A DNA stretch of 64,000 bases from an uncultured Candidatus Cloacimonadota bacterium. Lineage in GTDB: Bacteria > Cloacimonadota > Cloacimonadia > Cloacimonadales > JAJBBL01. How positions within the stretch are numbered: position 1 is the first letter of the stretch; each line of letters opens with the position of its first letter. The position numbers and the translations under genes were made by a program. The notes beneath the pieces were generated by a model. That model searched no databases and was not told the origin of the DNA. It worked only from the letters and a program-made list of their open reading frames with translations. Of the stretch, positions 7,318-59,226 are shown one piece after another. The stretch spans positions 145,437-209,436 of the forward strand of contig CAZBDV010000001.1 in NCBI GenBank assembly GCA_964490765.1. Direction: 5' to 3'.

Positions 7318-7792
7318 GCTTTTTCGATAAATTACGAAACTTTTTTTCAAACATAGAAGTCGTCTACTGAAATAACGGGCATTTGAAGACATCTATAATA
7401 CAGTAATATATTTCTGAGTAAACAAAAAATATGCTTGAGTTACCATGTACATTTAATCGTTCATTATATTATTTTGCAATATGAGAAAGTATTTAAAGTA
7501 TGAGCATAAATTATTGTACAGAGATGAGCTTATGTTATCACGAATCTCGTTAGGTGTCTCACTGCTTTGGCTAAGATTTTAGGAAATTTTTGACTGATAA
7601 TCAGAGCTTCAGTCAACCAGGAGACAGCCATCGTAACTTGTTGGTTATTCTGCTGTTACAAAACTCTCGAATCTGATGACTGTCTGGAATTAGCTCTATT
7701 AAGGAAAAAAAAGTAACAGAGATCGATTTTTTGATTGACAAAGTTATCACTATCTTGAAGTTAGAAATGTACTCAAAAAATGAGGAGGTATT

Positions 7793-27764: not shown

Positions 27765-27815
27765 GGGATGAATTGACTGATAAACAAAATTGATAAGAGA
27801 CAAGAGGATATGTTC

Positions 27816-29726: not shown

Positions 29727-29845
29727 TAATGATATAATGATGAGACGGTTGAAGATAGAGTATAAGAAAGCTTATTTCGAAGTTACTTTAGCATTGGAGT
29801 TCTTAAACGGTTAATGTTAGCTAAGATATGTAAAGGTATTAACTA

Positions 29846-32766: not shown

Positions 32767-33558
32767 TCAATCCCTCAATCTAAACATCTCCCAGTTCCCT
32801 GCAACTCTTCTGGCCAGATAAGAGAAACCGCAGGAGATAAGTTGTTCAACGCCCCTGTCATAATCTAAGTCAAAATGGTCTATCTTGTGTGAATCCGAAC
32901 CAATTACTATCAATTCCCCACCCATTTCACGGTATAGCCTCAGGTATACATCTGAAGGAATAAGCGTGCTAAGATAGTTTCTTAAACCAGACAGATTGAT
33001 TTCCAGGGCAATGCCTTTATCTATGATAGTTCTGAATATATCTTGTATTATCCCTGTTACTTTACTTTCATCAGGTTCTTCTTGAAAATAGCGCTTATAG
33101 ATGCCGAGGTGACCTAGGATATCGAATCCACCCTTTCTGGTTAAAGCAAGGTTTTCCAGATAGTAATCCTCAATAGCGGATTCTGTCATCTTCCCTATTG
33201 ATGTTTCGGAAACATTGCTACCGTCAGGAAGAACGTGTATTGAAGCAATTCGAATGTCGGGTGGAGTGGAGTGTTTCAGAACCTCTTCCACGAAGTCCGA
33301 ACACCGGTGATACTCTCCAAGTTCTACCCCTTTTAATATACTCAGTTCCGGAAATTCCTCTCTTATTTTTTCAATAGTACGGGAGTATTTTACATAAGAT
33401 GGAGTTCCATAGAATGCCAGCTCCGAAGGAAGGAAATCAAAATGGTCTGTAAAGGCAATCTCTTTGTATCCTTTTGTTACTGCTTTACAGATAAGAGTTC
33501 GCATATCAAGTCTGCTGTCAGCACTAAATTCACTATGTATATGGTAATCTATCTTCAT
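32767..33558 (-). CDS. PHP-domain phosphoesterase (HisJ-family histidinol-phosphatase-like)
   Basis: MKIDYHIHSEFSADS metal-binding N-terminus. Later H/D motifs (FTDH, GSDSH). Confidence 0.7.
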   Translation of the reverse strand: MKIDYHIHSEFSADSRLDMRTLICKAVTKGYKEIAFTDHFDFLPSELAFYGTPSYVKYSRTIEKIREEFPELSILKGVELGEYHRCSDFVEEVLKHSTPPDIRIASIHVLPDGSNVSETSIGKMTESAIEDYYLENLALTRKGGFDILGHLGIYKRYFQEEPDESKVTGIIQDIFRTIIDKGIALEINLSGLRNYLSTLIPSDVYLRLYREMGGELIVIGSDSHKIDHFDLDYDRGVEQLISCGFSYLARRVAGNWEMFRLRD

Positions 33559-45143: not shown

Positions 45144-47051
45144 ATGAAACGCATTTTATTTATCTTTGTTGTCCTGACTTTCCTCGGGACAGTTAATATC
45201 TTCGCTCAGACTGAAATCTGGACAGCAGGAGAACTAGATAACATCCGGAGTAGTAACATTACCCTCAGTAGTGATTATATCCAGATGACCGATATTACTC
45301 TCGCAGGAGATTGGGATCCTATTGGTACAGAGAGTGTTCCATTCACAGGTACTTATAATGGTAACGGATATGAAATCATTGGTCTCAACAGCACTATAGG
45401 TGGATTGTTTGGAGTAACCGAGGACGCATTCATAATGAATGTCGCTCTAAACAACATATCGATTGCAACAATGAGTGGAACTGTTGGTGGACTTGTCGGA
45501 CACGCTAAAAATACCAGAATCGAGAACTGTTATACAGGTCCTTTCGGTAAGATCGAGCAACTCGATATTTCGGGAGGCGGAGGTGATGTTGGTGGCTTAG
45601 TAGGTATCCTGGAAGGTACCGCTCTTGGTGATAACGATGAGTTTATCTCATATATCAAAAACAGCTACAATCAAGTTACGGTTTCAGGAGATAACAGAGT
45701 AGGTGGATTAGTCGGAAGCACATTAATCTGGCCGAATGGATTAGAACGTTATAGCTGGATCTATCGCTGTTACAATATTGGACCTGTGGTTGATAGTGAT
45801 AAGGTGGGTGGCCTGATTGGTATGAATGCTGAAGGAAGCAAAATTGAAGAGTGCTGGAGTGCCAATACGGTTCAAGCAGAACAGCAGGTCGGTGGTTTAG
45901 TAGGTATTAATTACGGACATATCCTCAATTGTTACTCTATCTGTGGACGGCCAGTTATAGGTGATTATGTTGGTGGTCTGGTTGGTGTAAATTACGCAAG
46001 TGGAGTAGTAGAAAACTGTTATAGCAGCAGAGTAGTACAACTTGCAGGAGAAATGCAGCATCCCGGTGGTCTTATTGGTTGGGGTGCCCCTGGCCAGACT
46101 CCACCACCACCTACTGAGCCATCAGGTTATGGTGAAGTAATCAATAGTTATTGGTGTGTTGAACGTTCCGGAGTCGATTCTCTGGGTTATAGTACAAATT
46201 ATGATATTCTGTATCTTTCCGGAAAGTTAGGTGCGGCAAGGACTCAGGACGAGATGGCTGTACAAATTTATGCTACTAACACATACGTTACCTGGCAAGC
46301 TGACTGGTACGATGATAATCCCTATATATGGGAAGCTACTTTATCTGACGGACCAAGCCTGGGATATCCAGTATTAGCAGATGTGCCTTTTGTCTGGAAT
46401 TGTCATTTTGATGTACCGCTACCCGTAGAACTATCATCCTTCACAGCAATAGTCATATCAACCGGCGCAGTCAATCTGGAATGGCGGGCAGAGACAGAAA
46501 CCAATGTCCTCGGTTATAATGTTTATCGATCCGAATATAATGATCTTGGTGATGCTGTAAAGATCAACGGTCCTGTTATCATTGCCAATAACAGTTCTAC
46601 TCCGTCTAACTATTCATTTCTCGATGAAGAGATCATACACGGGTCAACCTATTATTACTGGCTGGAGTCGGTAGATCTTGACCTTTCCAACGCCTTCCAC
46701 GGCCCTGTTTCGGTCCTGATAGCCTATGATGATGATGATGATGATAATGATATTCCCGAGATTCCCTTAGTAACGGAATTGATAGGTGCTTATCCAAATC
46801 CGTTTAATCCAGGAACACACATCAAATTCTCACTCGAAGAGACTTCCAGTGTCACAATTGTCATCTATAATGTACGTGGACAGTATGTTAAAACACTGGC
46901 ATCAAACAGAGAATTCGAAAAAGGGAGAAATCATACACTATTTTTCGACGGTAAGAATCATCTTGGTAAGGAAGTAAAATCTGGAGTTTATTTCTATATA
47001 ATGACAACCGAAGATTATCGCGAAGTGAAGAAGATGCTCCTGTTAAAATAA
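45144..47051 (+). CDS. Secreted GLUG-motif repeat protein with an Fn3-like module and a T9SS C-terminal sorting domain (paralogue 2)
   Basis: Signal peptide. VGGLVG repeats collinear with 5213..7120. Poly-Asp linker. CTD YPNPFNPGTHIKFSL...GVYFYIM...KMLLLK. Confidence 0.8.
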   Translation: MKRILFIFVVLTFLGTVNIFAQTEIWTAGELDNIRSSNITLSSDYIQMTDITLAGDWDPIGTESVPFTGTYNGNGYEIIGLNSTIGGLFGVTEDAFIMNVALNNISIATMSGTVGGLVGHAKNTRIENCYTGPFGKIEQLDISGGGGDVGGLVGILEGTALGDNDEFISYIKNSYNQVTVSGDNRVGGLVGSTLIWPNGLERYSWIYRCYNIGPVVDSDKVGGLIGMNAEGSKIEECWSANTVQAEQQVGGLVGINYGHILNCYSICGRPVIGDYVGGLVGVNYASGVVENCYSSRVVQLAGEMQHPGGLIGWGAPGQTPPPPTEPSGYGEVINSYWCVERSGVDSLGYSTNYDILYLSGKLGAARTQDEMAVQIYATNTYVTWQADWYDDNPYIWEATLSDGPSLGYPVLADVPFVWNCHFDVPLPVELSSFTAIVISTGAVNLEWRAETETNVLGYNVYRSEYNDLGDAVKINGPVIIANNSSTPSNYSFLDEEIIHGSTYYYWLESVDLDLSNAFHGPVSVLIAYDDDDDDNDIPEIPLVTELIGAYPNPFNPGTHIKFSLEETSSVTIVIYNVRGQYVKTLASNREFEKGRNHTLFFDGKNHLGKEVKSGVYFYIMTTEDYREVKKMLLLK

Positions 47052-47222: not shown

Positions 47223-47275
47223 CCATCTGTGGATAGTCCAATCCACAGATGGTATAGCTCTTTTCTGCTTTTTAA
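47223..47275. terminator. Strong hairpin between convergent genes (likely a bidirectional terminator and the end of the long minus-strand operon)
   Basis: Perfect 12-bp stem CCATCTGTGGAT / ATCCACAGATGG with a 6-nt loop. A T-rich tail follows on the plus strand. The T-tract on the minus strand is weaker. Confidence 0.55.
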
Positions 47276-47313
47276 ACTATCTCATTCACTGGATTCTCCG
47301 GAGAAAGTATAGA

Positions 47314-50028
47314 TCACTCAGGTTGGAAGAGCCTGTAACCCTGCAGTTCACCCTCGCCCAGGCCAAAATGGAGAAACTGGTCGTTCTGGGATGTAGTGCC
47401 TCTACCACCGAAGAGTTCTCTGATCAGGGTTCTTCTACTGCCGTCGGGAAGTAGGATCTCGACCTCGACCTTGCTCCCGAAGGCTGGTGAATTGGGCATA
47501 GACTCCTGCCACTCCTCTCTCGTGGAAATTTTCACCTCCTCACCATCCCAGTAGGGTTTGATGAAGAGAGACCGAAAATCGTTTTCCGTATCGTTACGGA
47601 ATATTTTTACTCCGTTACCACTACCCACGATCAGGTCAAGCTTACCGTTACAATTCAGGTCAGCAACTGCATTACCCCAGCCATTATAGGTTCGTGTTCC
47701 CGACAGCCAGGTGATATCGGTGAAGGTGCCGTCACGGTTGTTAAGATAAAGATAGCTCCGGTCGTTTTCATAGACCGAGGTGATATAAATGTCTAAAAAG
47801 CCGTCATTATCAGCATCGAACCAGTTGGGGTCGGAATGGAGTTCATCGAAGGTAATACCTGCTTCCTCTGTTACATCGGTGAATTTATGATAGACAATGG
47901 TTGTATCTCCGATAGTTCGTTCGGACAGTCCATCATTACGAAGGAGCATGCTGATATCAGAGAATTCAATAAAACGTGGATGGGCCAGATTGGCGATGAA
48001 AAGATCCAGCCTGCCATTGTTATTGAAATCACCCCAGGCAGCACCTATTGTATGGCCGTAATAATCGTAATCTCCACCAGATCTATATCTGTTTCCAGCT
48101 AATCTATTTAATGCTGCCCGATCATGAAACATTCCCTCTTCGTATTCCCAGAAAAAGTTACGGTTTAAGCGATAATTACTTACAAATATTGATTGTCTGC
48201 CGTCATTGTTATGATCAGCAGGAGAGACACCCCTTCCTGCCATCCCTGGCTCTCTTGTATATGCTGGTGAGAGAAAACCGAGCTCTGTAATTTTATCATA
48301 AAAAACACCTCTGTTATTGTACCAGAAATGGTCCTGAAAACCGTGCTGTACCTGCCAGAGTTCATAACTGGCAGTATAGAGTGATGGGTAGCCAGTATTC
48401 TCGAAATCTATCCAGGCTGCACCTTCTGTCGGGGCAAAATCGTTAATATCTGCTCCTTCACTATCGAGGGGAAGGAATCTTCCATCGTCAAGATTTCTGA
48501 ACAGTGTATTACCAGGTCCTTCGATCGAGGATGAGAGAGCTGCAAAATCGAGCAGGCCATCTTTATCGAAATCTGCCCATAAGCCACCTGTAAATGAGTA
48601 GTTGACTATACCTGTATCTTCGGTCAGTTCTGTGAAAGACATAGCTCCCTCATTACGATAGAGCCTGTGACCGTTAAAGAGTAGATCAGGTAGTGTATCA
48701 TTGGTATAATCGCCAATGGCAATTCGACGAAACCGTAAACCATCGAAACCGGCTTCTTCAGTAATATCGGTGAAGACCGGTCCCTTGTAGTTCTTGATCC
48801 TACGGCTCCAGTCCATGATATTATCATCTGTTCTCACTTCCTGATGCAGTAATTCGAGATAACTCAAAGCTGAAGCATCAAACCTTTTCCGCGGTGCTCC
48901 GGCTATCAGGCAATCGATGAAATACTCAGCAGTCTTCAAAGGATCGGTATCATTATCGAGTAGTATGGCGAATCTACCCAGCCAGTAATTCTGTCCGGCA
49001 ATTTCTCCGAAATCGTTATTGGTAACATCTCTGGATTTCAATAGCGCAAAACCTCTGTAAAAGTATTCATCAGGCTGCTCGATAATTCTGGCTATTCTGT
49101 CCTCATCACCCCAGAACCCTTTAGCGGAGATTGTAAGATAGTAATATACTTTTGCCAGTTGCAGATCTCTCTTCTGTTCCCAGTACTTTCGGTCCCATTT
49201 CTGATAAAGTATGGATACGAAATCCTTATCATCAGGAAAATATGATTCTGTAACTAACTCTGCTGCTCTGAACAACAAGTTACTACTTTCTTGATCATCA
49301 AACGAACTGCGGAAACCTGGATCTGTGAGAAGACCGGCCAGAAGAACAGCCAGTGGTGCAGATATCTCGGGAAACGAGTCGATTTCATCTACTATGCGTT
49401 CATATTCCTCAAGATTGAGATACGAGATAAGTCTGTAATATATATTCGTATCCTGCCAGCTGGAATTGGGAAACTTTAGTAGAAAATCTTCGCTCAAAGA
49501 AACTCTCAGGCTATCGTTATGCTCAACTGCAATTTCATCTATAAAACGCTGAATATAATTATCGAATAGAACTGGGTAGTGAGAGAAATCCCGCATCTCA
49601 GAAAAGAGAGTCTCTTCGTCTATCTCGCCTAGTGCATGCTCCAGAATCAGTCTCTCTGACGGTAATTTGAAAAAAGTTCTGATTTGTTCTATCTGGTCTT
49701 TCTTAGATTCTATTGAAAGCTCATCTGTTTCATTTTCGCTATATATAGTGAAGAGTCGGAATGCATCCTCAAGTTCTTTCAAGTTCAGTACTTTTAACTC
49801 GAGGTTTTCTACTATTACAGTACTATCCTGTCTGGCCAGGGCTATATCCTCCATCATATCATATAGTATAATTTCTTGTGGAGATTGTTCTATTTGCTCC
49901 CTGATAACAGATTCTGGAATCTCCCATAGCTCACGCTCATAACAGAATCTCAGTTCTTCGATAGTTAGAGCCGCTACAGAGATGGTGGAATATATGAGCA
50001 GAAGGAAGAATAATACAAGAGTTCTCAA
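47314..50028 (-). CDS. Secreted CRTAC1-like protein: helical N-terminal region, FG-GAP/VCBS repeats and a C-terminal ASPIC/UnbV domain
   Basis: Signal peptide. Repeated Ca-binding-type loops (DFDKDGLLDF, GDFNNNGRLDLFIAN, DADNDGFLDIYITS, ADLNCNGKLDLIVGS). UnbV-like tail (GSKVEVEILLPDGSRR...GRGTTSQNDQFLHFGLG). Confidence 0.75.
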   Translation of the reverse strand: MRTLVLFFLLLIYSTISVAALTIEELRFCYERELWEIPESVIREQIEQSPQEIILYDMMEDIALARQDSTVIVENLELKVLNLKELEDAFRLFTIYSENETDELSIESKKDQIEQIRTFFKLPSERLILEHALGEIDEETLFSEMRDFSHYPVLFDNYIQRFIDEIAVEHNDSLRVSLSEDFLLKFPNSSWQDTNIYYRLISYLNLEEYERIVDEIDSFPEISAPLAVLLAGLLTDPGFRSSFDDQESSNLLFRAAELVTESYFPDDKDFVSILYQKWDRKYWEQKRDLQLAKVYYYLTISAKGFWGDEDRIARIIEQPDEYFYRGFALLKSRDVTNNDFGEIAGQNYWLGRFAILLDNDTDPLKTAEYFIDCLIAGAPRKRFDASALSYLELLHQEVRTDDNIMDWSRRIKNYKGPVFTDITEEAGFDGLRFRRIAIGDYTNDTLPDLLFNGHRLYRNEGAMSFTELTEDTGIVNYSFTGGLWADFDKDGLLDFAALSSSIEGPGNTLFRNLDDGRFLPLDSEGADINDFAPTEGAAWIDFENTGYPSLYTASYELWQVQHGFQDHFWYNNRGVFYDKITELGFLSPAYTREPGMAGRGVSPADHNNDGRQSIFVSNYRLNRNFFWEYEEGMFHDRAALNRLAGNRYRSGGDYDYYGHTIGAAWGDFNNNGRLDLFIANLAHPRFIEFSDISMLLRNDGLSERTIGDTTIVYHKFTDVTEEAGITFDELHSDPNWFDADNDGFLDIYITSVYENDRSYLYLNNRDGTFTDITWLSGTRTYNGWGNAVADLNCNGKLDLIVGSGNGVKIFRNDTENDFRSLFIKPYWDGEEVKISTREEWQESMPNSPAFGSKVEVEILLPDGSRRTLIRELFGGRGTTSQNDQFLHFGLGEGELQGYRLFQPE

Positions 50029-50056
50029 TCTCTACTTACCCAGATTAATTTCCATC

Positions 50057-51058
50057 TTATCTTTCCTTATCGATATGCTCAATAATCTTTTCAACGACCG
50101 TCTTAGCTTTCATCCCCTCCGCTTCAGCAGCGAAAGAGATAATAACTCTGTGTTGTAAAACAATAGCCGCTACCCTTCTGACGTCTGCTTCCGAGGGGGT
50201 CGCTCTACCTTCCAGAGCTGCCCTTGTCTTCGCTGCCAGTACTAGATACTGAGAAGCTCGTGGTCCGGCACCCCAGCTAACCCATCTCTTGACGAAATCT
50301 GCAGCTTCTGGATATTCAGGACGAGATGCTCTCGCCAGTTTTACAGCATAATCCAGAACATGTTCACTTACCGGTAGGCTAAGAATCATCTTCTGCATTT
50401 CTATTATTTCAGGGGCTGAGAGAACAGGCTCAATCTCTTCAGGTATGCCACCTGTAGTTCTGATCACTATCTCTCTCTCCTCGTCATAAGAGGGGTAATA
50501 GATGTTGATATTGAACATGAATCTATCCAACTGTGCTTCCGGTAGAGGATATGTCCCCTCCTGCTCGATTGGATTTTGAGTAGCCAGCACAAGAAAAGGC
50601 TGGTCGAGATGATAGGTTGTATTTCCTGCTGTCACCTGATACTCCTGCATTGACTGTAAAAGGGCAGCCTGAGTCTTGGGTGGTGTACGATTAATCTCGT
50701 CGGCCAGAATGACATTGGAAAAGATCGGGCCTTTAATGTATTCGAAATATCTTTTACCGTCCGCCTTACTCTCAGCCAATATATCGGTTCCTGTGATATC
50801 AGAAGGCATCAGGTCGGGTGTAAATTGTATTCTGCTAAACTTAAGATTCAGAGCCTTTGATAGGCTTGAGATCAGAAGTGTTTTTGCCAGACCGGGTACA
50901 CCCTCAACCAGACAGTGCCCATGAGCAAAAAGGGCAATCAGTATTTCTTCAATCACCCTGTCCTGACCTATTATAACCTTTCTTATCTCTTTTAGAACTC
51001 TTTCTCTATCTGTCTTTAACTTCTCAAGCATCGCAATTCTGTTCTTCTCATCACTCAT
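50057..51058 (-). CDS. MoxR-family AAA+ ATPase
   Basis: IIGQDRVIEEILIAL..GHCLVEGVPGLAKT, RIQFTPDLMPSDITG. Start at MSDEK (SD AAGGAG 9 nt upstream) overlaps the upstream stop by 8 nt. Confidence 0.85.
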   Translation of the reverse strand: MSDEKNRIAMLEKLKTDRERVLKEIRKVIIGQDRVIEEILIALFAHGHCLVEGVPGLAKTLLISSLSKALNLKFSRIQFTPDLMPSDITGTDILAESKADGKRYFEYIKGPIFSNVILADEINRTPPKTQAALLQSMQEYQVTAGNTTYHLDQPFLVLATQNPIEQEGTYPLPEAQLDRFMFNINIYYPSYDEEREIVIRTTGGIPEEIEPVLSAPEIIEMQKMILSLPVSEHVLDYAVKLARASRPEYPEAADFVKRWVSWGAGPRASQYLVLAAKTRAALEGRATPSEADVRRVAAIVLQHRVIISFAAEAEGMKAKTVVEKIIEHIDKER

Positions 51059-52055
51059 AAAAATCATCTCCTTTCTTCATTATCGTCATAAGCCTGACTC
51101 CAGCATAACTATAAGCAAAGATACCAATAGTTACGATGATCAAACCTGTCAAGATATGTGAAAATAGCATGATAGCCCCTGACAATTCAGCCTGCATTCC
51201 AAAACCAGCAGCAAATATCAGGGTCATTATCAGTTCATTACTCCCCAGCTGAGCTGGTGGATGTGGTATTATATATGATAGATAAATAAGGGTATAACCA
51301 AGTAGAACATAGAAGTAATTGACTTCGGTAGAGAAAGCCTGAAACAGGGAAAAAAAGAAAAAGCTGTCGAATAGAATTGCTCCAATAGAGAAGATTATTA
51401 CAGGAAATATCAGATGTTTCTGATTCTTGAATACTGCAAGGCCATCTACAAATAGAGACAGCGTTTCATCCAACTTATCTTCATATCTGACCGGCACGAA
51501 GAAGCAGATTTTTTTCAGAATACCAACCACCTTTTCTCCAGCATAGATTGCAGTAAAGAGAATAAAGAGACCGATAAGGAGAATTAACAGAATGATGAAT
51601 ATCAAAATCGTCAACAGGGGGGGGAGAGATACTGAAAGTATGGGGACGAGCAGGAGAACAAAGAGTATGCCTATTGTATCGAAAAGTTTATCGATAAATA
51701 CGGAAGGTAATGTACTCGTCATTCTCGTTCCATATAGCTTCTTAACAAAATAACATTTCATCAATTCTCCCGCTCTCAGGGGGATGATATAATTGGTGAA
51801 ATTTCCAGCCATAAGTATCAGGAAGGATTTCGATCGGGAAATCGGTTGTACACGGTGTAAAAGAAGTCTCCATCGAAGCGATCTGAAATAGTAAGCTGAG
51901 ACATAAAAAGCCGCAGCAATAAGCACATAAAGTAGCTTAAGATTCTGCAAATAGTATCTTATGGTCGCGATGTCAACAAAGCGGAACCAGATCAGGAGAA
52001 AAATTACTCCGATTCCTGTCCCAACCAAGATCGTTCGTAACTTACTTTTCATCAA
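51051..52055 (-). CDS. UPF0104 / lysylphosphatidylglycerol-synthase-TM-region-like integral membrane protein
   Basis: 334 aa and multi-TM. Family-like signature FRSLRWRLLL...GNFTNYIIPLRAGELMKCYF. Confidence 0.6.
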   Translation of the reverse strand: MMKSKLRTILVGTGIGVIFLLIWFRFVDIATIRYYLQNLKLLYVLIAAAFYVSAYYFRSLRWRLLLHRVQPISRSKSFLILMAGNFTNYIIPLRAGELMKCYFVKKLYGTRMTSTLPSVFIDKLFDTIGILFVLLLVPILSVSLPPLLTILIFIILLILLIGLFILFTAIYAGEKVVGILKKICFFVPVRYEDKLDETLSLFVDGLAVFKNQKHLIFPVIIFSIGAILFDSFFFFSLFQAFSTEVNYFYVLLGYTLIYLSYIIPHPPAQLGSNELIMTLIFAAGFGMQAELSGAIMLFSHILTGLIIVTIGIFAYSYAGVRLMTIMKKGDDFYE

Positions 52056-52117
52056 ATCTCTTTATCTATCCTTTCTCCATAAAACAATTGAAACAGCAGT
52101 TCAATAACAAAACAACA

Positions 52118-52966
52118 CTAACTGCTCTCGGTTTTTCTAATGTAAAGATAATAATGGTGATGAGCCCAGAACCGTTTCAATATTTCTGGTAGTTTCCTTT
52201 CCAGGCCATTATACTTTAACATTCGTTGCGTAAAATTTTCATCCCTTCCACGATAAAAACTCATAATCGATGTTCCCTTTGTCTCATCAGCATCTTTGTC
52301 GAGAAGAAAACCGAGATAGAGTTTCTTCAGAAAGTGCTCTTTCTTCATACCAATATCGGGCCAGGGTGGACAATCTATCAGCCTCTCCTCTGCCAATTTC
52401 CAACCAAGATTACTCATTATTCTGGAGAAACAGGAGTATTTTATCGAATCAGTATCTACTACTTCTTTATAGGTCTTCTTGCTCATTATCTTCTGCATTA
52501 AAAACCCGGGACCAGTCCTATTCGGTACGATGATAAGTATTATCTTCTTTGAAACTCTGTCCAATTCAGCGAGGAAACTCTCAATATCTTTAACAAACCA
52601 AAGTGCAGAGAAATTCCAGCTCATATCGAACTCATAATCGTTAACCGGTAGAGAGGTAAAGTTTTCCGAATACTTAAGATTCACCGGCAGTTTGCACTCT
52701 TTCCATAACTTTTCTATCATTACCAATCGTTCACTATTGTCATCGGTCAGAGTTATCTCTTTTCCCTCCTGGGCCATATTCATGCTGTTAATCCCCGAAA
52801 TACCTGTAAAACCAAAGATTGGTGCTTCCAGAACAGTTTTTACATCGTGTTCCTGGCAAATCCTTGTCAGGTGTTGATTAAGGATTACCCTTTCATAAGA
52901 TGAACCGAGCCCTTCATTCTCGTTTTGAAAATAATTTTTCCAATCATCAATAATTGGTATAGCCAT
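52118..52966 (-). CDS. Hypothetical protein, possibly a Rossmann-fold methyltransferase-like protein
   Basis: 282 aa. Topology resembles class I MTases (VLEAPIFGFTGISG ... ITLTDD ... FDMSWNFSAL ... ILIIVPN) but the glycine motif is atypical. Confidence 0.45.
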   Translation of the reverse strand: MAIPIIDDWKNYFQNENEGLGSSYERVILNQHLTRICQEHDVKTVLEAPIFGFTGISGINSMNMAQEGKEITLTDDNSERLVMIEKLWKECKLPVNLKYSENFTSLPVNDYEFDMSWNFSALWFVKDIESFLAELDRVSKKIILIIVPNRTGPGFLMQKIMSKKTYKEVVDTDSIKYSCFSRIMSNLGWKLAEERLIDCPPWPDIGMKKEHFLKKLYLGFLLDKDADETKGTSIMSFYRGRDENFTQRMLKYNGLERKLPEILKRFWAHHHYYLYIRKTESS

Positions 52967-53001
52967 TTCTCTCCCCTACCTGCTGACAATGTTCTGCTGT
53001 T

Positions 53002-53986
53002 TTACTTTATGCTATGAGTCTTTTTATACCAGTCCACAACTACCTTGAAATCCGGTATCGTCTTAGCATGCCGTAAAAATAGATCCTTAAAAGCATCAGA
53101 ACAGTCATAGAACCAGCTGTTACTGATCAACTTGATTCGATTATGAAAATTATGCAACCCGTGTTTTTCTGCAAAACGAGCTAATCTGCGGAATATTTTA
53201 ACAGAGATATACCTGTTACCTGGATAATCTCTCTTATACAAACGATTGCTGATGAAATCTACCAGTTCGTCTAATTGAACGGGATACCGATCAGGCAATA
53301 TTGTAAATTTTGTTACCTCTGAACTCATCTTCTGCAAGCTTATAGAAAGCGTCTGCTACGATATCAATATTGGCCAGGTGGATTATCTTCGTTATGTCGG
53401 GTAGAAAAATTAGCTTCCTGTGCACCAGTTTCACAAGTGTATAGGGAAATCCATAATCATCTTCACCATAAGTAATGGCAGGTCGGATAATAACTGCTTT
53501 CAGACCAGCCAGTGCATGCTTCTGTATAATAGACTCTGCCTTGATCTTGGTATCATGATATACATTGTCACCCTGATATTGAGTCTTGACTGTTGCAGGT
53601 AACTCCTGTGGTATAGCACCGTAAACCCCTACAGAAGAGCAAAAGAGCAATTTGCTCTCATTCTTTAATGATACCTCCGCGATCTGTTCAGTAGCCTTGA
53701 CATTGGTATCATAATAGATTCTTTTCGGATATTTTTTCCCACCTCTGAGAGCTCCGATATGGATAATAGTATCGAATTTTTCATGATTAAGAAAACTTCT
53801 CAATTTCTGTGTATCTGCCAGGTCAATTTTAATCAACTCAACGTTATTTGCGAGGAATTTGAGCCGCCTAGTTGACGTTCCTGGCCTTACAATAGCCGTA
53901 AAATTCGTCTTCTTGGCTATGAGTAACCGTGCAACATTGCTCCCGATAAATCCAGTCGCACCAGTTAATAGAATTCTGTTAGCCAT
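53002..53986 (-). pseudogene. NAD-dependent epimerase/dehydratase (extended SDR) split by a single-base frameshift
   Basis: ORF 53291..53986 has LLTGATGFIGSNV and ends ...GNKIYNIA-TGA. ORF 53002..53337, in another frame, continues with DRYPVQLDELVDFISNRL...VDWYKK, the expected SDR C-terminus. The combined length is about 328 aa. Confidence 0.65.
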
Positions 53987-54779
53987 TGTTGATTATTCTC
54001 AAGAGTCGATGAAATAAACTCTCAGTATCTCGATCTTTTCTGATAGGTTGAATTTCTGGATTCAAGAACTCAACAGGTTCATTTCTTAAAATCCGGGCAG
54101 GATTATCGCACATCAGCTTTTTCACCGGAACATCGGTATAGTTCTCCCTTAATAGATTCTCAAGAGTAGCGAGAGAATAGCTATCTGTCCTGCAATGATG
54201 ATCTGATGCAATAAAATGGATATAACCGTGGTGAAACATTTCCCATACTGTACTGGTGACAAGACTGCCGTATTCACCGAGAAAGCTGCCGGCATTGGCC
54301 TGCAGATAGACATTACGATGAATGAGTTCTTCAGCAATATTGATGTTTTTCATAATATCTATATATCTTTCGGGATGGGCCAGTATTGGTCTGAGGCCAT
54401 CTTTGACCATCTGATAGAGCATATCAAAAAGGTTGATGGGGAAACCGTGCATAGCGGTCTCTACAAGGACATAATCGCTGTCTGCCATCCTGAATTTATC
54501 GAAATCGATCATCTTGCCTCTCATTTGCGTAAGATATACTTCGATCCCGCTGATTAGATTAATACCTATACTCTCTTCGAGCGCAGCTTCTCTGAGGAGC
54601 TTTATTTCTCCACGGATAAGCGTTTTGGTATTATCATATTCACCCGGCATATAGTGAGGAGTGAGGAATATGTCAGTCACACCGCTATCCTGAGCCAATT
54701 TTAGTGCTTTTAGAGCATCTTCGATGTCCTCTGCTCCATCATCGATATAGGGTAAAATGTGGGTGTGAATATCAATCAT
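53979..54779 (-). CDS. CpsB/YwqE-type PHP-family metal-dependent phosphatase
   Basis: MIDIHTHILPYIDDGAEDIEDAL N-terminus, TPHY, HPERY and SDHH motifs. 4-nt overlap with the upstream GGGPS-like gene and 8-nt overlap with the downstream SDR gene. Confidence 0.75.
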   Translation of the reverse strand: MIDIHTHILPYIDDGAEDIEDALKALKLAQDSGVTDIFLTPHYMPGEYDNTKTLIRGEIKLLREAALEESIGINLISGIEVYLTQMRGKMIDFDKFRMADSDYVLVETAMHGFPINLFDMLYQMVKDGLRPILAHPERYIDIMKNINIAEELIHRNVYLQANAGSFLGEYGSLVTSTVWEMFHHGYIHFIASDHHCRTDSYSLATLENLLRENYTDVPVKKLMCDNPARILRNEPVEFLNPEIQPIRKDRDTESLFHRLLRIINNG

Positions 54780-55519
54780 TTTCTCAGGCTGTGTATTGCT
54801 TGAACGAATTCCGATAACAATCTCTGATCGTTGTTCTTTTCCAGAACTGTACCGGTTACTATGATGTCTGCTCCCGCCTCAGCTATGACAGTTGCTTTCT
54901 CGGGAGTTCGTATCCCTCCTCCTACAATGATGGGAAGGTCGGTTGTTGACCTGGCCTGCTTGATCATGTCCACCGGAACCGGCCTTTCTGCACCGCTACC
55001 AGCTTCTAGATAAATCATCTTCATCCCGATATATTCAGCAGCCATTATATGAGCTGCGAGGATATCAGGCTTATCTCGCGGAATTGGAAGACTATTACTA
55101 ATATACTGCACTGATGTAAGTTTCCCTGATTCTATGAGAATATAAGCTGTACTGATTGCTTCCAGGCCATTTTTTCTTATTAGTGGTGCGGCTCTTACCT
55201 GTTCACCTATCAATAATTGTGCATTCCGGCTGCTTATCATATTTAGGAATAGTATCGCATCTGCATGTGGTGAAAAGGTGTTTAAAATCCCGGGAAAGAT
55301 CAGGAGGGGTATTTTGATCTGTTCCTTCAATTTCTTGATACAGTCACTTACTTCTCTGTGCATCAGTATACTGCTCCCGATTAATATCCCGTCGACGCCA
55401 AGCTTTTCAGCTTTCTGAGCAAGGTGAAAAGCCTCATCAGGACCACTCTTATCAGGATCTATCAGAATGAAATATGCCGGTTTAGGCATGTTGATCAGTT
55501 TTTTATAGATGTGATTCAT
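54776..55519 (-). CDS. Geranylgeranylglyceryl-phosphate synthase-like protein (PcrB/GGGPS family)
   Basis: 247 aa TIM-barrel-type protein. FILIDPDK, GVDGILIGSS, IYLEAGSGA, IIVGGGIRTPEKA. Confidence 0.75.
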   Translation of the reverse strand: MNHIYKKLINMPKPAYFILIDPDKSGPDEAFHLAQKAEKLGVDGILIGSSILMHREVSDCIKKLKEQIKIPLLIFPGILNTFSPHADAILFLNMISSRNAQLLIGEQVRAAPLIRKNGLEAISTAYILIESGKLTSVQYISNSLPIPRDKPDILAAHIMAAEYIGMKMIYLEAGSGAERPVPVDMIKQARSTTDLPIIVGGGIRTPEKATVIAEAGADIIVTGTVLEKNNDQRLLSEFVQAIHSLRK

Positions 55520-55565
55520 AATTTATACCTTTTATTTGACTCGCTTGTTTCCTTCTTTAGCTCAA

Positions 55566-56405
55566 TTATCCTATAAATATCAATACAAACAACAGTACCA
55601 ACATATGTAGCTTTATGAGTGTGGACGATTCGTTTAGTTTACTGGAAGTTATATTACGAAACAGATTGACGTATATAAGTAGAAGTGGGATAGTATATAG
55701 TAAAAATACTACCCAAAAACTTGTCTGTGTACTAATAACGCTGGAGAGTCGCATCCCGTAACCTATCACCAGTAAACCGGCAAGTATAACTGCCGGAATT
55801 AAAGATATTAGAACAGCTTTCTGTTCTCCATAGATAGTTGCCAGTGTTTTGACCTGTAATCTCTCGTCTCCTCTTTTATCTTCTGCATCTTTAACTATTT
55901 CTCTTACTAAAGTATACAAGAGCGTATAGGCAAAGATCGGAAGAATATTTGTAACATTGTTTCCGACAACAGCTCCGAAAAGAAAAGTACTAGCTGTGGT
56001 ATAAGAGACTACAATATTGCCCACTAGCACTGATCTTTTCAGCTTTTTCGCATAGAAATAGAGAAGTAACGAATTGATAATAGCTATAATTATAGCCCAG
56101 ATATTGGCTGTGAAGAAGCTGAGCGAAAAGCCCAATACAAAGAGAAACAATGAATAGAGGTAGGCACGTTCCGGGGCAATTTTTCCTCTCGGCATAATAC
56201 GCTGTGGTTTATTGACTATATCTATATGGAGATCATAGAAATCGTTAATAACATAACCACCGGCTGCAATAAAAATAGCCGAAAGAATAGCAAAGATCAT
56301 TGCTGTAAAATCAACCATATAATTGTTTAAAAGCCCTCCGGCCAATACTGCCAAACCTATGAAGAGACAGTTAAAAGGCCTGATAATCATTAGATAATAT
56401 TTCAC
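55566..56405 (-). CDS. UbiA-family prenyltransferase, digeranylgeranylglyceryl-phosphate synthase-like
   Basis: 279 aa, about 8 TM. First Asp-rich motif NDFYDLHIDIVNKPQRIMPRGKI. Second motif DAEDKRGD. 4-nt overlap with the upstream polyprenyl synthase. Confidence 0.65.
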   Translation of the reverse strand: MKYYLMIIRPFNCLFIGLAVLAGGLLNNYMVDFTAMIFAILSAIFIAAGGYVINDFYDLHIDIVNKPQRIMPRGKIAPERAYLYSLFLFVLGFSLSFFTANIWAIIIAIINSLLLYFYAKKLKRSVLVGNIVVSYTTASTFLFGAVVGNNVTNILPIFAYTLLYTLVREIVKDAEDKRGDERLQVKTLATIYGEQKAVLISLIPAVILAGLLVIGYGMRLSSVISTQTSFWVVFLLYTIPLLLIYVNLFRNITSSKLNESSTLIKLHMLVLLFVLIFIG

Positions 56406-57292
56406 AGTGGTATTCGTTCCCTTATCATATATATGTATTCAACCAATATCTCGTTAGAGGGCATATTCTTGATCAATTTATAAGAGTCATCGAGCAGCTT
56501 TTCTGCTGTTCTTCTCGCTTTATCCAGGCCAAGAATGGCTGCATAGGTGGCTTTGTTATTCCGAGCATCTTCTCCCGGTTCTTTGCCCAAAATCTCACTG
56601 GTTCCAATCTCATCGAGGATATCATCGATAATCTGATAGGCTAATCCGACATTGAGGGCAAAGTTCTCCAGTGCTAAAATAACATTTTCTTCCGCTTCAC
56701 CCATAACACAGGCCAGATCTATCGCTGCCTTTAATAATGATCCTGTCTTCTTCAAATGTATGTATTTGAGAACATTTATTCGTGCTTTAGCACTGGTAAC
56801 CATTACATCTACAGTCTGTCCCCCTATCATACCTCTGGTCGAAATCTCTCTTGCAAGGACATTGATACAGGTAATAGCTTTTTTTGAATTATTTATATTG
56901 GTCAAGACTTCGAATGCCTTGGTTAAGAGAGCATCACCTGCAAGGATAGCAGTTGCTTCTCCAAATTTCTTATGACAGCTGAGTTCACTTCTTCTCAGAT
57001 CAGAATTATCGATACTGGGAAGATCATCATGTATCAGAGATGCGGTATGAACCATCTCCAGAGCACAGGCAGCCGGAACAATTGGTTGCAGCATCGAAGC
57101 GTTACGTTTCTCCTTCAGCATCTCATAAGTAGCGAAGAAGATTATCGGTCTGAGTCTCTTGCCACCAGAAAAGATCGAATAATGCATCGCTTCATACAGC
57201 GGTTCTGGATATTCATTTACCGGTGTCAAATACTCTTTCAACGCTTTTTCTACAATCGATTTTCTTGAGTCGAAATATTTCTCTAATACCAA
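56402..57292 (-). CDS. Polyprenyl diphosphate synthase (probably geranylgeranyl-PP synthase)
   Basis: TTG start. FARM LIHDDLPSIDNSDLRR with small residues (A,S) at positions -5/-4. SARM QIIDDILD. Confidence 0.8.
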   Translation of the reverse strand: MVLEKYFDSRKSIVEKALKEYLTPVNEYPEPLYEAMHYSIFSGGKRLRPIIFFATYEMLKEKRNASMLQPIVPAACALEMVHTASLIHDDLPSIDNSDLRRSELSCHKKFGEATAILAGDALLTKAFEVLTNINNSKKAITCINVLAREISTRGMIGGQTVDVMVTSAKARINVLKYIHLKKTGSLLKAAIDLACVMGEAEENVILALENFALNVGLAYQIIDDILDEIGTSEILGKEPGEDARNNKATYAAILGLDKARRTAEKLLDDSYKLIKNMPSNEILVEYIYMIRERIPL

Positions 57293-57337
57293 AATCTACC
57301 TCTCTTCTTGTTTGTCAAAACTCCTCTCGTTATTAAT

Positions 57338-58372
57338 CTATACAGACAGCGGGAGATCGACCTTCTTCCCGGTGCGTGACGATTGATAAAAGGCTAAAAT
57401 AATTTCCAGTGACTTTCTGCCGTCTCTTCCGTTTGTATGAGGACTGTTTTTCCCATTCATAGCCTCTACGATATTTAGATAATAGGGTAAATGCCCAGAA
57501 CCGTAGACTGTCAATGGCTGATAATTAACCTCTTCTAACAATCTGTCATCGTCATCATAATCCTCGAATTCCCACTTATCGACTTTATTTAGTGCTATAC
57601 CACCAATCTTTACAGAACCCTTTTCTCCCAGAATGGTAATTGAGCCTTCATAATTCTTGGGAAAGGTCAACATAGTAACATTGATAGTACCTATAGCACC
57701 ATTAACAAATCTAAGAATAGCTGTTCCTGTGTCTTCAGTCTCTATGTTACGTGCCATTGTAGCAGTCTCTGCCATCACTGACTTGACATCTCCTATCAAC
57801 CAGTATAGGCCATCAACATAATGACTTGCCTGATTAAGAAAAGCTCCCCCGTCGTATTTCCATGTCCCTCGCCAGGAAGCCATATCATAATAGGACTGTG
57901 GTCTTTGCCAGAAAACATTAGATTGCACAAGATATATTCTGCCGAACCTGTTTTTCTCTATCGCCCTTTTCAGTAACTGCATTGTTGGATTGAGCCTATT
58001 TTGTTTCACAACAAAGAGATGTACTTTATTGTCATCACAGCTCTGGATCAATTTATCAGCAGACTCGAGATCTGTTCCCATAGGTTTTTCAGTAAGAACA
58101 TTGATCCCTCTCCTAGCAGCTTCAATGCCAATCTCAGGATGCAGGCTGCTCGGTGTGCAAATTACTACAAGATCAATTTTCTCCTTGTCCAGCATCTCTT
58201 TGTAATCAGCATAATAGGTCTTGAGTTCAAAATTCTCAGCAGCAGCAGCAGCTCTTTCGGGGATGATATCTGCGCAGGTAACAAAACAGGCTTCATTCAG
58301 ATTCTCAACTGCTTCAAAATGCTTGCCGGATATCCTTCCGCAACCTATTAATCCCATTCTGATAACCTTCAT
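57338..58372 (-). CDS. Gfo/Idh/MocA-family NAD(P)-dependent oxidoreductase
   Basis: N-terminal Rossmann MKVIRMGLIGCGRISGKH. EKPM motif (LTEKPMG). 344 aa. First gene of the operon. Confidence 0.8.
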   Translation of the reverse strand: MKVIRMGLIGCGRISGKHFEAVENLNEACFVTCADIIPERAAAAAENFELKTYYADYKEMLDKEKIDLVVICTPSSLHPEIGIEAARRGINVLTEKPMGTDLESADKLIQSCDDNKVHLFVVKQNRLNPTMQLLKRAIEKNRFGRIYLVQSNVFWQRPQSYYDMASWRGTWKYDGGAFLNQASHYVDGLYWLIGDVKSVMAETATMARNIETEDTGTAILRFVNGAIGTINVTMLTFPKNYEGSITILGEKGSVKIGGIALNKVDKWEFEDYDDDDRLLEEVNYQPLTVYGSGHLPYYLNIVEAMNGKNSPHTNGRDGRKSLEIILAFYQSSRTGKKVDLPLSV

Positions 58373-58479
58373 TCCAACTCCTTTTTGTTCAAATCAAGTA
58401 ACTACATGTCCCGACGAAAAAAACTAATCCAGCAGACAAACTATTTGAACCTGATGAAAAGTTCTTTCCAAGTTAGTTC

Positions 58480-58508
58480 TATTAAGGGTTTACTGTTAAA
58501 ATTGTCAA
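58480..58508 (-). promoter_or_regulatory. Sigma70-like promoter (TTGACA-N17-TTAATA) for the long minus-strand operon
   Basis: Minus strand reads TTGACA ATTTTAACAGTAAACCC TTAATA, about 105 nt upstream of the ATG at 58372. Confidence 0.45.
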
Positions 58509-58785
58509 CTAATAAATATGTTATGAACTTTGCAATACAGTGAAGGGCTTTAATTTATTTAAATCACTCTTTTGCTGCTATGTATAGAAAAGTGGATCAT
58601 TTTATCTTCTCTCTACAGTCTTTCTACCTCCATATGGTTAAGTATGGCTTCTTAAACTTTCTCAGAGCATCTGATAAATCGTATGATAATCGTGCGGTAT
58701 TCTATAAATGATGTTCAGTCTGTTTAAGCGAAGAAACTCTTTGACAAAAGTTTCGTTTAAAATATGTTGTTGAATGGAGGATGAA

Positions 58786-59226
58786 ATGAAACGAGTATTG
58801 CTTACAGGCTTGTTCATACTGCTGGTATCAGCTATCCATATCTATGCTGAGCCACTGGGAAGTAATTTAGAAGCTCCCTATATAAACCTTAATGGAATCC
58901 TTAATCCCTCCAATATAAAAATGAATCATACAATGTCATTTATGACAGGTATGTCGTCCGGTGGAGAAGGATATTATCAGTCAGTTTACACCAATCATCT
59001 TCTCTTTGATTTGCATCCCAAAATCGATCTACAACTCGACCTGAACTTTGTCAATTACGGCACAGCAAATTGGGATAGCAATTTTTCGGTTAAAGCTAAT
59101 GACGATAATCAGAGTCAGATTTTACCGGAATTTTCGCTTCAATACAGACCTACTGAGAGAACGAGTATCCGAGTAGAATTCCGTTCCATGAAACCCTATC
59201 AGAGGAACGATAACTGGTGGTGGTAA
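58786..59226 (+). CDS. Small secreted hypothetical protein (beta-rich, ends in WWW)
   Basis: Start at the ATG 5 nt after GGAGG gives signal peptide MKRVLLTGLFILLVSAIHIYA. No family recognised. Confidence 0.55.
   Translation: MKRVLLTGLFILLVSAIHIYAEPLGSNLEAPYINLNGILNPSNIKMNHTMSFMTGMSSGGEGYYQSVYTNHLLFDLHPKIDLQLDLNFVNYGTANWDSNFSVKANDDNQSQILPEFSLQYRPTERTSIRVEFRSMKPYQRNDNWWW

Follow-up and report, generated by a model that had tools for sequence, protein, structure and literature searches.

A conserved eight-gene block in Cloacimonadota joins the ether-lipid triad to putative dephosphorylation, tailoring and translocation genes

Introduction

The closest described relative of the system analyzed here is the ether-lipid gene triad of Cloacimonetes. 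Villanueva et al. (2021, ISME J, PMC7852524) reported that the GGGPS and DGGGPS genes of these bacteria are co-localized with a polyprenyl synthase gene. The Cloacimonetes GGGPS and DGGGPS make phosphatidylglycerol (PG)-archaeol in E. coli, transcripts of the GGGPS, DGGGPS and polyprenyl synthase genes are present in situ in Black Sea water, and RT-PCR of individual triad genes was reported for related metagenome-assembled genomes (MAGs) (PMC7852524). Cloacimonadota are the main example argued for mixed archaeal/bacterial membranes in living bacteria, and the argument rests on three genes. Here, we analyze a 64,000-nucleotide (nt) stretch of DNA, which we call the window, from an uncultured Candidatus Cloacimonadota bacterium (GenBank assembly GCA_964490765.1, contig CAZBDV010000001.1, positions 145,437 to 209,436). 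In the window the triad belongs to a conserved block of eight genes: GGPPS, DGGGPS, GGGPS, a PHP-family phosphoesterase gene, an SDR gene, a methyltransferase gene, a gene for a polytopic LPG_synthase_TM (flippase-like) protein and a MoxR ATPase gene.

A second point of comparison is the PcrB pathway of Bacillus. There, the product of PcrB first loses its phosphate and then receives an acetyl group (PMC9179154); a proposal for the resulting lipid, Ac-HepG, is that it is flipped and donates acetyl groups outside the cell (PMC12345273). For Bacteroidetes, the function of the bacterial GGGPS product has been called “still unknown” (PMC7888582). The block described below bears on the use, finishing and movement of bacterial GGGPS products, and it narrows the question of which lipid is made to a short list of candidate genes. 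What is new is the set of five conserved partners; the triad was already known. An earlier note on this DNA had suggested that the gene combination was not a described pathway. This does not hold for the triad, which was published in 2020–21 (PMC7852524). It does hold for the five downstream partners, of which we found no description: they are unmentioned in the main text and supplement of PMC7852524, and the later Cloacimonadota papers that we could search do not discuss them.

Results and discussion

Eight genes form the conserved unit

The earlier note had described ten minus-strand open reading frames (ORFs) of the window as one operon. All ten are in the ORF list where it placed them, and the labels and order it gave, from a Gfo/Idh/MocA oxidoreductase gene to an FG-GAP/UnbV gene, agree with Pfam and NCBIfam (Table 1). 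We surveyed synteny around these genes with tblastn, ORF mapping and family hidden Markov models on 80 GGGPS-centered loci, together with gene-context look-ups; the architecture frequencies given here rest on approximately 20 loci. The survey reduced the ten-gene unit to eight genes, because synteny in relatives was found for the eight genes from GGPPS to MoxR (11 lineages) and not for the Gfo and FG-GAP genes at the two ends, which are lineage-specific.

Order and strand of the eight genes are the same in the window as in L001, L002, L003, L004, L005, L007, L008, L018, L080 and L085. Across these full-type loci, GGGPS identity is 51 to 70%, block proteins are approximately 35 to 87% identical to those of the window, and neighboring block genes everywhere either overlap or lie a few tens of nt apart. 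The GGGPS relatives found among one-genome-per-species contigs, with 70% identity for the best match, assign the window to Candidatus Cloacimonadota. Outside the block, the gene before GGPPS usually lies on the opposite strand, and the gene after MoxR is purA in three lineages (L004, L007, L008), a KdsB-like gene in L018, a GNAT gene in L005, a type IX secretion system (T9SS) metalloprotease gene in L001 and an opposite-strand gene in L002 and L080. Since both flanks vary among lineages, we place the limits of the block at GGPPS and MoxR. That the ten genes of the window are neighbors by chance is hardly credible; the two end genes, which are not conserved neighbors, fit such an origin, but for the central eight it is refuted by their synteny in 11 diverged lineages and by a common promoter box.

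A reduced type, PcrB-PHP-SDR-methyltransferase-MoxR, is present in three large genomes (L082, L083 and L084, with PcrB at 7487, 5600 and 5580), and L016 has PcrB-PHP-SDR-MoxR. In the reduced type, MoxR is followed by a conserved, Cys-rich HATPase_c protein of approximately 375 amino acids (aa) and a small membrane protein of approximately 100 aa. In L082 to L084, the 9 to 10 kb on either side are free of polyprenyl synthase, UbiA and LPG_synthase_TM genes. The reduced-type proteins are as close to those of the window as are the full-type orthologs (PcrB 52 to 54%, MoxR 70 to 71%). Judged by these identities, the full and reduced blocks are orthologous and differ in whether they have GGPPS, DGGGPS and the flippase-like gene, which come or go as a set, and the processing genes are ones that travel with GGGPS, as the reduced architecture shows. 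In L083 and L084, an IS200-type Y1 transposase gene lies directly upstream of PcrB. It hints at rearrangement, and the GGPPS, DGGGPS and flippase-like genes may therefore be elsewhere in reduced-type genomes.

We read the block as a Cloacimonadota-specific operon for an isoprenoid glycerol-ether lipid, in which core synthesis would be followed by dephosphorylation, tailoring and translocation, and we give this reading a probability of roughly 0.5. The proposal of the earlier note, a lipid core plus a head-group or remodeling module, survives in this form as the best available reading, with roles assigned from family membership and linkage. The GGPP-type prenyl diphosphate synthase would supply the chain, GGGPS (PcrB) would form the first ether bond to glycerol phosphate, and the UbiA-family DGGGPS would form the second; these three steps are well supported. 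The PHP phosphoesterase, which appears to be translationally coupled to GGGPS, would dephosphorylate the ether lipid. Its substrate might be GGGP or DGGGP, yielding a neutral prenylglycerol as in Bacillus, or else a phosphorylated head-group intermediate. The paired NADP-type SDR and S-adenosylmethionine (SAM)-dependent methyltransferase would tailor the product or a head-group precursor, and the UPF0104 flippase-like protein, whose gene co-varies with those for GGPPS and DGGGPS, would move the diether product across the membrane. Transcription would start at a sigma-70-like TTGACA promoter, with MoxR co-expressed as the terminal gene.

Table 1. Features of the ten-gene array and its putative signals, in window coordinates
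Feature	Coordinates	Strand	Evidence or remarks
Putative sigma-70-type promoter	58480..58508	minus	TTGACA 58508-58503, 17-nt spacer, TTAATA 58485-58480
Gfo/Idh/MocA NAD(P) oxidoreductase, sugar/inositol-dehydrogenase-like	57338..58372	minus	Pfam GFO_IDH_MocA N- and C-terminal domains
Short-chain trans-prenyl diphosphate synthase, probably GGPPS	56402..57292	minus	Pfam polyprenyl_synt 5.6e-57; first conserved-block gene
UbiA-family prenyltransferase, DGGGPS-like, second ether bond	55566..56405	minus	Pfam UbiA 1.2e-34
GGGPS (PcrB family), first ether bond, GGPP-glycerol phosphate	54776..55519	minus	Pfam PcrB 1.6e-44
PHP-family metal-dependent phosphoesterase (CpsB/YwqE-like)	53979..54779	minus	Pfam CpsB_CapC 2.4e-53
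Extended SDR (NAD(P)-dependent epimerase/3-beta-HSD-like)	53002..53986	minus	Pfam Epimerase 1.7e-30; 327 aa when intact
Class-I SAM-dependent methyltransferase	52118..52966	minus	Pfam Methyltransf_11 3.4e-7
Polytopic LPG_synthase_TM/UPF0104 “flippase-like” protein	51051..52055	minus	Pfam LPG_synthase_TM 4.6e-39, residues 10-311
MoxR-type AAA+ ATPase	50057..51067	minus	Pfam AAA_3 3.7e-62 and AAA_lid_2; last conserved-block gene
Secreted FG-GAP/UnbV (ASPIC) repeat protein, 904 aa	47314..50028	minus	Pfam FG-GAP_3, FG-GAP, UnbV_ASPIC; signal-peptide-like N-terminus
Hairpin, perfect 12-bp stem and 6-nt loop	47223..47252	minus	Candidate terminator between convergent genes

Ether-lipid core genes

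The window and the locus of Villanueva et al. come from the same phylum and have the same three genes adjacent to each other. The window GGGPS lies above the curated cut-offs of its models (TIGR01769, 221.6 against 161.55 bits; NF003198, 290 against 247). The best NCBIfam models of the UbiA-family protein are those for DGGGPS, both with scores below the cut-off (NF009521, 192 against 296 bits; NF009523, 182 against 269), and its translation contains the motif NDxxDxxxD. The DGGGPS-like gene overlaps the GGPPS gene by 4 nt and is separated from GGGPS by 46 nt. Unlike our analysis, the published work treats the triad only and assumes synthesis of phospholipids by a CDP-dependent route; the activity is known for homologs of the window enzymes.

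The prenyl synthase passes the NCBIfam FPPsyn subfamily cut-off (302 bits, cut-off 275), and its score with the CrtE-type GGPPS model, 267 bits, is below cut-off. All ten orthologs examined have Ala at position -5 and Ser at position -4 before DDLPxxD, the first Asp-rich motif (FARM). By the chain-length rule for type-II enzymes, Ala at -5 before FARM fits a C20 product (GGPP) rather than a C15 product (FPP), and the product of this enzyme is probably GGPP.

PHP phosphoesterase

The PHP gene overlaps the GGGPS gene by 4 nt and lies directly 3' of GGGPS in every Cloacimonadota locus, as well as in five loci from other phyla of the FCB group. Its product aligns end to end with YwqE (3qy6, 4e-29) and shares with CpsB and YwqE full-length homology, the PHP fold and every metal-binding residue. 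In ten orthologs H5, H7, H42, E80, H135-P-E-R, D193 and H195 are invariant, and all metal ligands are kept. What sets the Cloacimonadota protein apart from CpsB and YwqE is its partner, which is GGGPS and not a kinase, and its NCBIfam Cps4B score of 97 bits, where the cut-off is 400. Neither the block genes nor the flanking genes scanned in the window and its relatives include a BY-kinase or modulator partner (CpsC/CpsD, YwqC/YwqD) or a capsule locus. We propose that the PHP enzyme acts as a phosphatase for GGGP or DGGGP, or for a head-group intermediate.

The window has a second, unrelated PHP-domain protein (263 aa, 32767-33558, minus strand), which is encoded approximately 20 kb from the cluster beside genes for TPR proteins.

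SDR and methyltransferase

The earlier note had called the SDR gene frameshifted, and the comparison with other assemblies bears this out. A single extra C at 53294/53295 splits the gene into two ORFs, 53291-53986 and 53002-53337. At this site the window reads ATTGCCTGATCGG, compared with ATTGCTGATCGG in two independent JGI assemblies (L086 and L087) that are 99.6 to 99.7% identical to the window in DNA sequence over 5 to 6 kb and encode an intact SDR of 327 aa. The SDR is intact in all orthologs, and the deposited product of the 234-kb source contig is a truncated protein of 231 aa. Because near-identical assemblies and orthologs carry an intact gene, the lesion is, on this comparison, a strain-level mutation or an assembly error and not a property of the system.

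The motif TGxxGxxG, Ser117/118 and Y143xxxK147 are invariant in the SDR, and Arg34 is approximately 90% conserved; an Arg after strand beta-2 suggests use of NADP(H). An AlphaFold2 (AF2) model of the SDR has a pLDDT of 92, and its closest fold in the PDB is Gox2253 (3wj7, TM-score 0.79), followed by nucleoside diphosphate (NDP)-sugar epimerases and dehydratases. The literature that we found on Gox2253 holds nothing that bears on the substrate of the SDR. The methyltransferase gene always directly follows the SDR gene. Its family comprises 641 homologs (sequence clusters), and the named ones among the top 120 are nearly all from Cloacimonadota. There is no match to its sequence in the PDB. Its AF2 model (pLDDT 85.8) resembles small-molecule methyltransferases with TM-scores of approximately 0.5, among them TleD, RebM/AtmM, phosphoethanolamine methyltransferases and an FPP C6-methyltransferase.

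The SDR and methyltransferase genes also occur as a mobile two-gene unit (L081:9024-10843, L088:7027-8849 and L089:7026-8849), with PcrB adjacent in none of the three. In L081 the pair lies beside genes for Ugd, GT4 and GT2 glycosyltransferases, a deacetylase-like protein and a polytopic membrane protein of 523 aa; in L088 and L089 it is accompanied by a Flavodoxin_4 protein gene, without PcrB.

One role for the SDR can be derived from what Cloacimonetes lack. CarS and the glycerol-1-phosphate (G1P) dehydrogenase EgsA/AraM are missing in these bacteria, and the absence of the latter is stated as an open problem (PMC7852524). An NADP-type SDR that reduces dihydroxyacetone phosphate might replace the missing dehydrogenase; the gene is always within two genes of GGGPS, and the Arg after strand beta-2 is typical of enzymes that use NADP(H). 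We nonetheless think it very improbable that the SDR is the source of G1P, given its obligatory pairing with a methyltransferase, its presence in loci without PcrB, its bilobal, nucleotide-sugar-like fold with a large C-terminal substrate domain, and the frameshift in a window whose GGGPS is intact.

Membrane protein and terminal ATPase

The flippase-like protein (334 aa) scores 116 bits with TIGR00374, above the cut-off of 43, and has no match to its sequence in the PDB. It is polytopic and shares its Pfam and TIGR families (LPG_synthase_TM, TIGR00374) with MprF, from which it differs in that it consists of the transmembrane domain alone: the C-terminal aminoacyl-PG synthase domain of MprF is missing, and flippase activity is predicted for such standalone members. 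Another standalone member is presumably HpnL of the hopanoid clusters. The block protein resembles standalone UPF0104 proteins in being encoded in a cluster of isoprenoid-lipid genes. The block nevertheless differs from hopanoid clusters, as the SDR scores 74 bits with HpnA (cut-off 367.65) and no match to an HpnL model was found. Every locus with the flippase-like gene has GGPPS and DGGGPS as well, and the gene is missing from the reduced type. This difference between full and reduced architectures suggests that the UPF0104 protein is tied specifically to the diether branch.

The MoxR ATPase has intact Walker A (GVPGLAKT) and Walker B (ILADEINR) motifs. Its gene adjoins the block in 15 of the 16 Cloacimonadota lineages with a located MoxR ortholog, the exception being NIOZ-UU1. 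It belongs to the same AAA_3 family as the MoxR of MoxR/Bat (aerotolerance) operons, but in Cloacimonadota it directly follows lipid genes, and no DUF58 or vWA/BatA partner adjoins it in any Cloacimonadota locus.

Proposed function and its rivals

The block follows the same logic as the Bacillus PcrB pathway, with a synthase, a phosphatase, tailoring and a flippase-like protein, and it uses unrelated protein families to do so. The Bacillus lipid derives from heptaprenylglyceryl phosphate (C35) without a second ether bond, is acetylated by YvoF and, as Ac-HepG, is used by LhaT, and the genes are dispersed. The Cloacimonadota chain, in contrast, is probably C20, DGGGPS is present, and tailoring would be carried out by the SDR and the methyltransferase. 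The block has no acetyltransferase/YvoF or LhaT homolog, and a GNAT gene follows MoxR only in L005. To our knowledge, the phosphatase that acts in Bacillus does not belong to the PHP family.

Several observations weigh against an operon for core synthesis, dephosphorylation, tailoring and translocation. Co-transcription of the array is inferred from sequence, and the SDR copy of the window is itself frameshifted. Fold and sequence searches of the PDB name no substrate for the SDR or the methyltransferase and return only generic extended-SDR and class-I methyltransferase neighbors. The pair occurs without PcrB, and its substrate therefore need not be an ether lipid. The closest characterized relatives of the PHP enzyme, YwqE and CpsB, are protein-tyrosine phosphatases, and we know of no lipid phosphatase in the CpsB/YwqE PHP family. 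If the PHP enzyme dephosphorylates GGGP, it would compete with the DGGGPS of the same operon. Finally, in the NIOZ-UU1 MAG, the MoxR gene (64% identical; NODE_1442 10278-11282, PMC7852524 Table S5) is not beside lipid genes and is preceded by opposite-strand PIN-domain toxin genes and four genes for hypothetical membrane proteins.

These points bring in a narrower account, in which only the triad is functionally linked. DGGGP would enter CDP-activated phospholipid synthesis, as Villanueva et al. assume, and the five downstream genes would be passengers in a conserved transcription unit: the PHP enzyme a protein-tyrosine phosphatase, the SDR and methyltransferase modifiers of a nucleotide sugar for an envelope glycan, and MoxR a housekeeping chaperone. 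Such an account would explain why the nearest solved PHP relatives are the tyrosine phosphatases YwqE and CpsB, why the SDR fold resembles NDP-sugar epimerases and dehydratases, and why L081 has the SDR-methyltransferase pair within a glycan cluster and L088 and L089 have it away from PcrB. It agrees with the unlinked MoxR of NIOZ-UU1 and with the fact that GGGPS and DGGGPS suffice for PG-archaeol in E. coli (PMC7852524). It fits poorly with the retention of order, strand and overlaps among proteins that have diverged to 40 to 55% identity while the flanks turn over, with processing genes that stay with GGGPS where GGPPS and DGGGPS are not adjacent, and with a GGGPS-PHP pair that recurs in other phyla. 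In addition, the scanned loci, the window among them, have no gene for a BY-kinase, CpsC/D or a glycosyltransferase within the block or next to it. We regard the passenger account as unlikely, without dismissing it.

Another way to assign the partners is to a polar head group. The SDR and methyltransferase would then make a modified polyol or sugar precursor, the PHP enzyme would act on a phosphorylated head-group intermediate in the manner of a phosphatidylglycerophosphate (PGP) phosphatase, and the flippase-like protein would export the finished polar ether lipid. The nucleotide-sugar-type fold of the SDR points in this direction, as do the fold neighbors of the methyltransferase, among which are two O-methyltransferases of sugars, RebM and AtmM, and N-methyltransferases of phosphoethanolamine. 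The pair lies beside polyprenyl-phosphate-type GT2 enzymes in L081, the inositol/sugar-dehydrogenase-like Gfo gene heads the unit in the window, and CarS is missing in Cloacimonetes, which leaves the attachment of head groups unresolved (PMC7852524). However, the blocks of the 11 full-type loci include no CDP-alcohol phosphatidyltransferase, glycosyltransferase or cytidylyltransferase, the Gfo gene is not conserved, and the reduced type keeps PHP, SDR and methyltransferase with only a mono-ether synthase adjacent. A module for polar head groups is improbable on this balance.

Returning to the operon for synthesis, dephosphorylation, tailoring and translocation, the triad lies within an eight-gene unit and a phosphatase gene is coupled to GGGPS; the end product may therefore be something other than the assumed phospholipid. 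A more specific form, which we advance tentatively and with considerable doubt, is that GGGPS, PHP, SDR and methyltransferase, joined by the flippase-like protein in blocks with DGGGPS, would make a dephosphorylated, tailored prenylglycerol ether and not mainly a membrane phospholipid. Two candidates for such a product are a neutral, O-methylated lipid resembling methoxy-archaeol and a group-carrier lipid, in either case delivered to the outer leaflet. Neutral O-methylated archaeol (methoxy archaeol) occurs in nature (PMC7291766). As speculation, a phosphatase and a methyltransferase together would be a plausible route to a methoxy-archaeol-like lipid. We know of no enzymes that make methoxy archaeol. 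If a dephosphorylated product is indeed made, the block would represent a Gram-negative equivalent of the Ac-HepG carrier system of Bacillus, with the PHP enzyme as the first phosphatase dedicated to prenylglyceryl phosphate, and the interpretation of Cloacimonadota as having a mixed archaeal/bacterial membrane would need revision.

Packing and transcription signals of the array

In the ORF list, the run of minus-strand ORFs is unbroken from 58372 down to 47314, and plus-strand genes lie on both sides. Upstream these are an ORF at 58774-59226 and a prepilin peptidase gene; downstream, a gene for a T9SS-tailed Glug protein (45144-47051). Intergenic gaps across the array measure 45, 46, 35, 62 and 28 nt; three overlaps measure 4, 4 and 8 nt, and a fourth lies between the MoxR and flippase-like genes. 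The earlier statement that no gap exceeds 62 nt is correct. The accompanying statement that four overlaps measure 4 to 8 nt is correct with Met4 as the start of MoxR, the choice made in the public gene call P0121, which gives an overlap of 8 nt, and incorrect with the first ATG as the start, which gives 17 nt. With one strand, short gaps or overlaps, one promoter and no internal terminator, the array has the marks of an operon, and the junction lengths support the claimed operon-like packing.

The proposed promoter, TTGACA-N17-TTAATA, is present approximately 136 nt upstream of the Gfo/Idh/MocA start codon. Its -10 hexamer is poor, as TTAATA matches TATAAT at two of six positions, and the site is absent from the list returned by a single-sequence promoter scan. 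Comparison adds support that the window sequence could not give: a TTGACA box is kept upstream of the first block gene in nine related loci. In eight of these (L001, L002, L004, L005, L007, L008, L080 and L085) the sequence TTGACA(AT) is followed 16 to 17 nt on by an A/T-rich hexamer and lies 62 to 138 nt upstream, and in L003 the box lies 195 to 221 nt upstream. The background frequency of TTGACA is 0.43 per kb per strand, and approximately 0.06 are expected per 150-nt upstream region. In ten Cloacimonadota loci, the -35-like box upstream of the block has the canonical sequence TTGACA, in many cases lengthened to TTGACAAT, which suggests that Cloacimonadota use a classical sigma-70-type -35 element rather than a Bacteroidota-type promoter. 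No Rfam match was found in the leader of approximately 100 nt, where a riboswitch was sought, or anywhere else in the window.

The window has a second perfect TTGACA at 57313-57318 on the minus strand, in the 45-nt gap between Gfo and GGPPS and 26 nt before the TTG start of GGPPS. It may be a relic of an ancestral promoter close to GGPPS, as in other lineages.

At the other end of the array, the hairpin that the earlier note had reported has an exact stem of 12 bp and lies 62 nt past the FG-GAP stop codon, with no U-tract directly after it (47252-47223). The region folds with -30.8 kcal/mol (z = -3.6). We considered whether the hairpin is a repeated element and rejected this, as it occurs once in the window. 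A consensus scan found no intergenic terminator-like site inside the array, in keeping with the earlier view that it holds no convincing internal terminator; the three minus-strand candidates are weak and all lie inside genes. The scan returned 13 candidates in total against a shuffled expectation of 7.7 ± 3.0, an excess that is not significant.

Nor does base composition give any sign that the cluster is a foreign island: its GC content, 0.39 to 0.42, equals that of the rest of the window. Pfam identifies T9SS sorting domains in flanking genes, consistent with an origin in the FCB group.

Genes at the two ends

Of the 11 full-type lineages, three have a Gfo/Idh/MocA gene adjacent to the block: the window, L001 and L080. 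The window protein scores best with the NCBIfam model for inositol 2-dehydrogenase, but its 141 bits fall far short of the cut-off of 355. In L080, the block has a promoter of its own, whose TTGACA box is in the gap between Gfo and GGPPS; the Gfo gene lies upstream of this promoter and is grouped with genes for threonyl-tRNA synthetase (ThrRS), KpsF and a TylF-like methyltransferase in an array. With a promoter at this position and a separate array for Gfo, the Gfo gene is not intrinsic to the block.

The FG-GAP/UnbV gene starts 28 nt after MoxR and is probably co-transcribed with it here. Apart from the window, only L003 has a homolog 3' of MoxR, with 38% identity. By this distribution, the Gfo head and the FG-GAP tail are genes that the transcription unit has gained in this genome, outside the conserved system.

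Two further observations concern the arrangement of genes at and near the block. The genes for ThrRS and a KpsF-like SIS+CBS isomerase lie approximately 27 kb from the block in the window (27810-30814) and immediately upstream of it in L080 (L080:3404-6363), a difference in placement that points to local rearrangement around the block. In L003, a gene for a Glug-like protein of 336 aa lies between GGPPS and DGGGPS (L003:1471-2481); this is the sole interruption of the block that we saw.

GGGPS neighborhoods in other phyla

For comparison, we examined the other 70 FCB-group loci (within L006 to L079, with GGGPS around position 10000). DGGGPS lies near GGGPS in only two non-Cloacimonadota loci, L014 and L033. 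This rarity agrees with the published statement that co-localization of GGGPS and DGGGPS is restricted to Cloacimonetes (PMC7852524). The GGGPS-PHP pair is present in five loci, L011, L037, L047, L054 and L074, from Cytophagia, Latescibacterota, Gemmatimonadaceae and two other MAGs. None of the five has any other block gene, and in L047 the PHP gene is inserted between GGGPS and a gene for a SIS_2 isomerase. In these loci, GGGPS-PHP is the only pairing seen again outside Cloacimonadota.

We also considered a general ancestral link between MoxR/Bat genes and GGGPS and rejected it, as only 6 of the 70 outgroup loci have such genes. A MoxR-DUF58 pair lies approximately 5 to 6 kb upstream of GGGPS in four Marinisomatota-like loci (L022, L046, L050 and L056), and a BatA (vWA) gene follows GGGPS-PHP(-SIS_2) in two others (L047:10452-12518 and L074:10378-12459).

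The usual context of GGGPS outside Cloacimonadota is one of housekeeping genes, with an alanyl-tRNA synthetase gene upstream in 23 of the 70 loci. Directly downstream of GGGPS, 36 of the 70 have a gene for a SIS_2 (GmhA-like) phosphosugar isomerase of approximately 195 aa, a linkage that might bear on the unexplained supply of glycerol phosphate.

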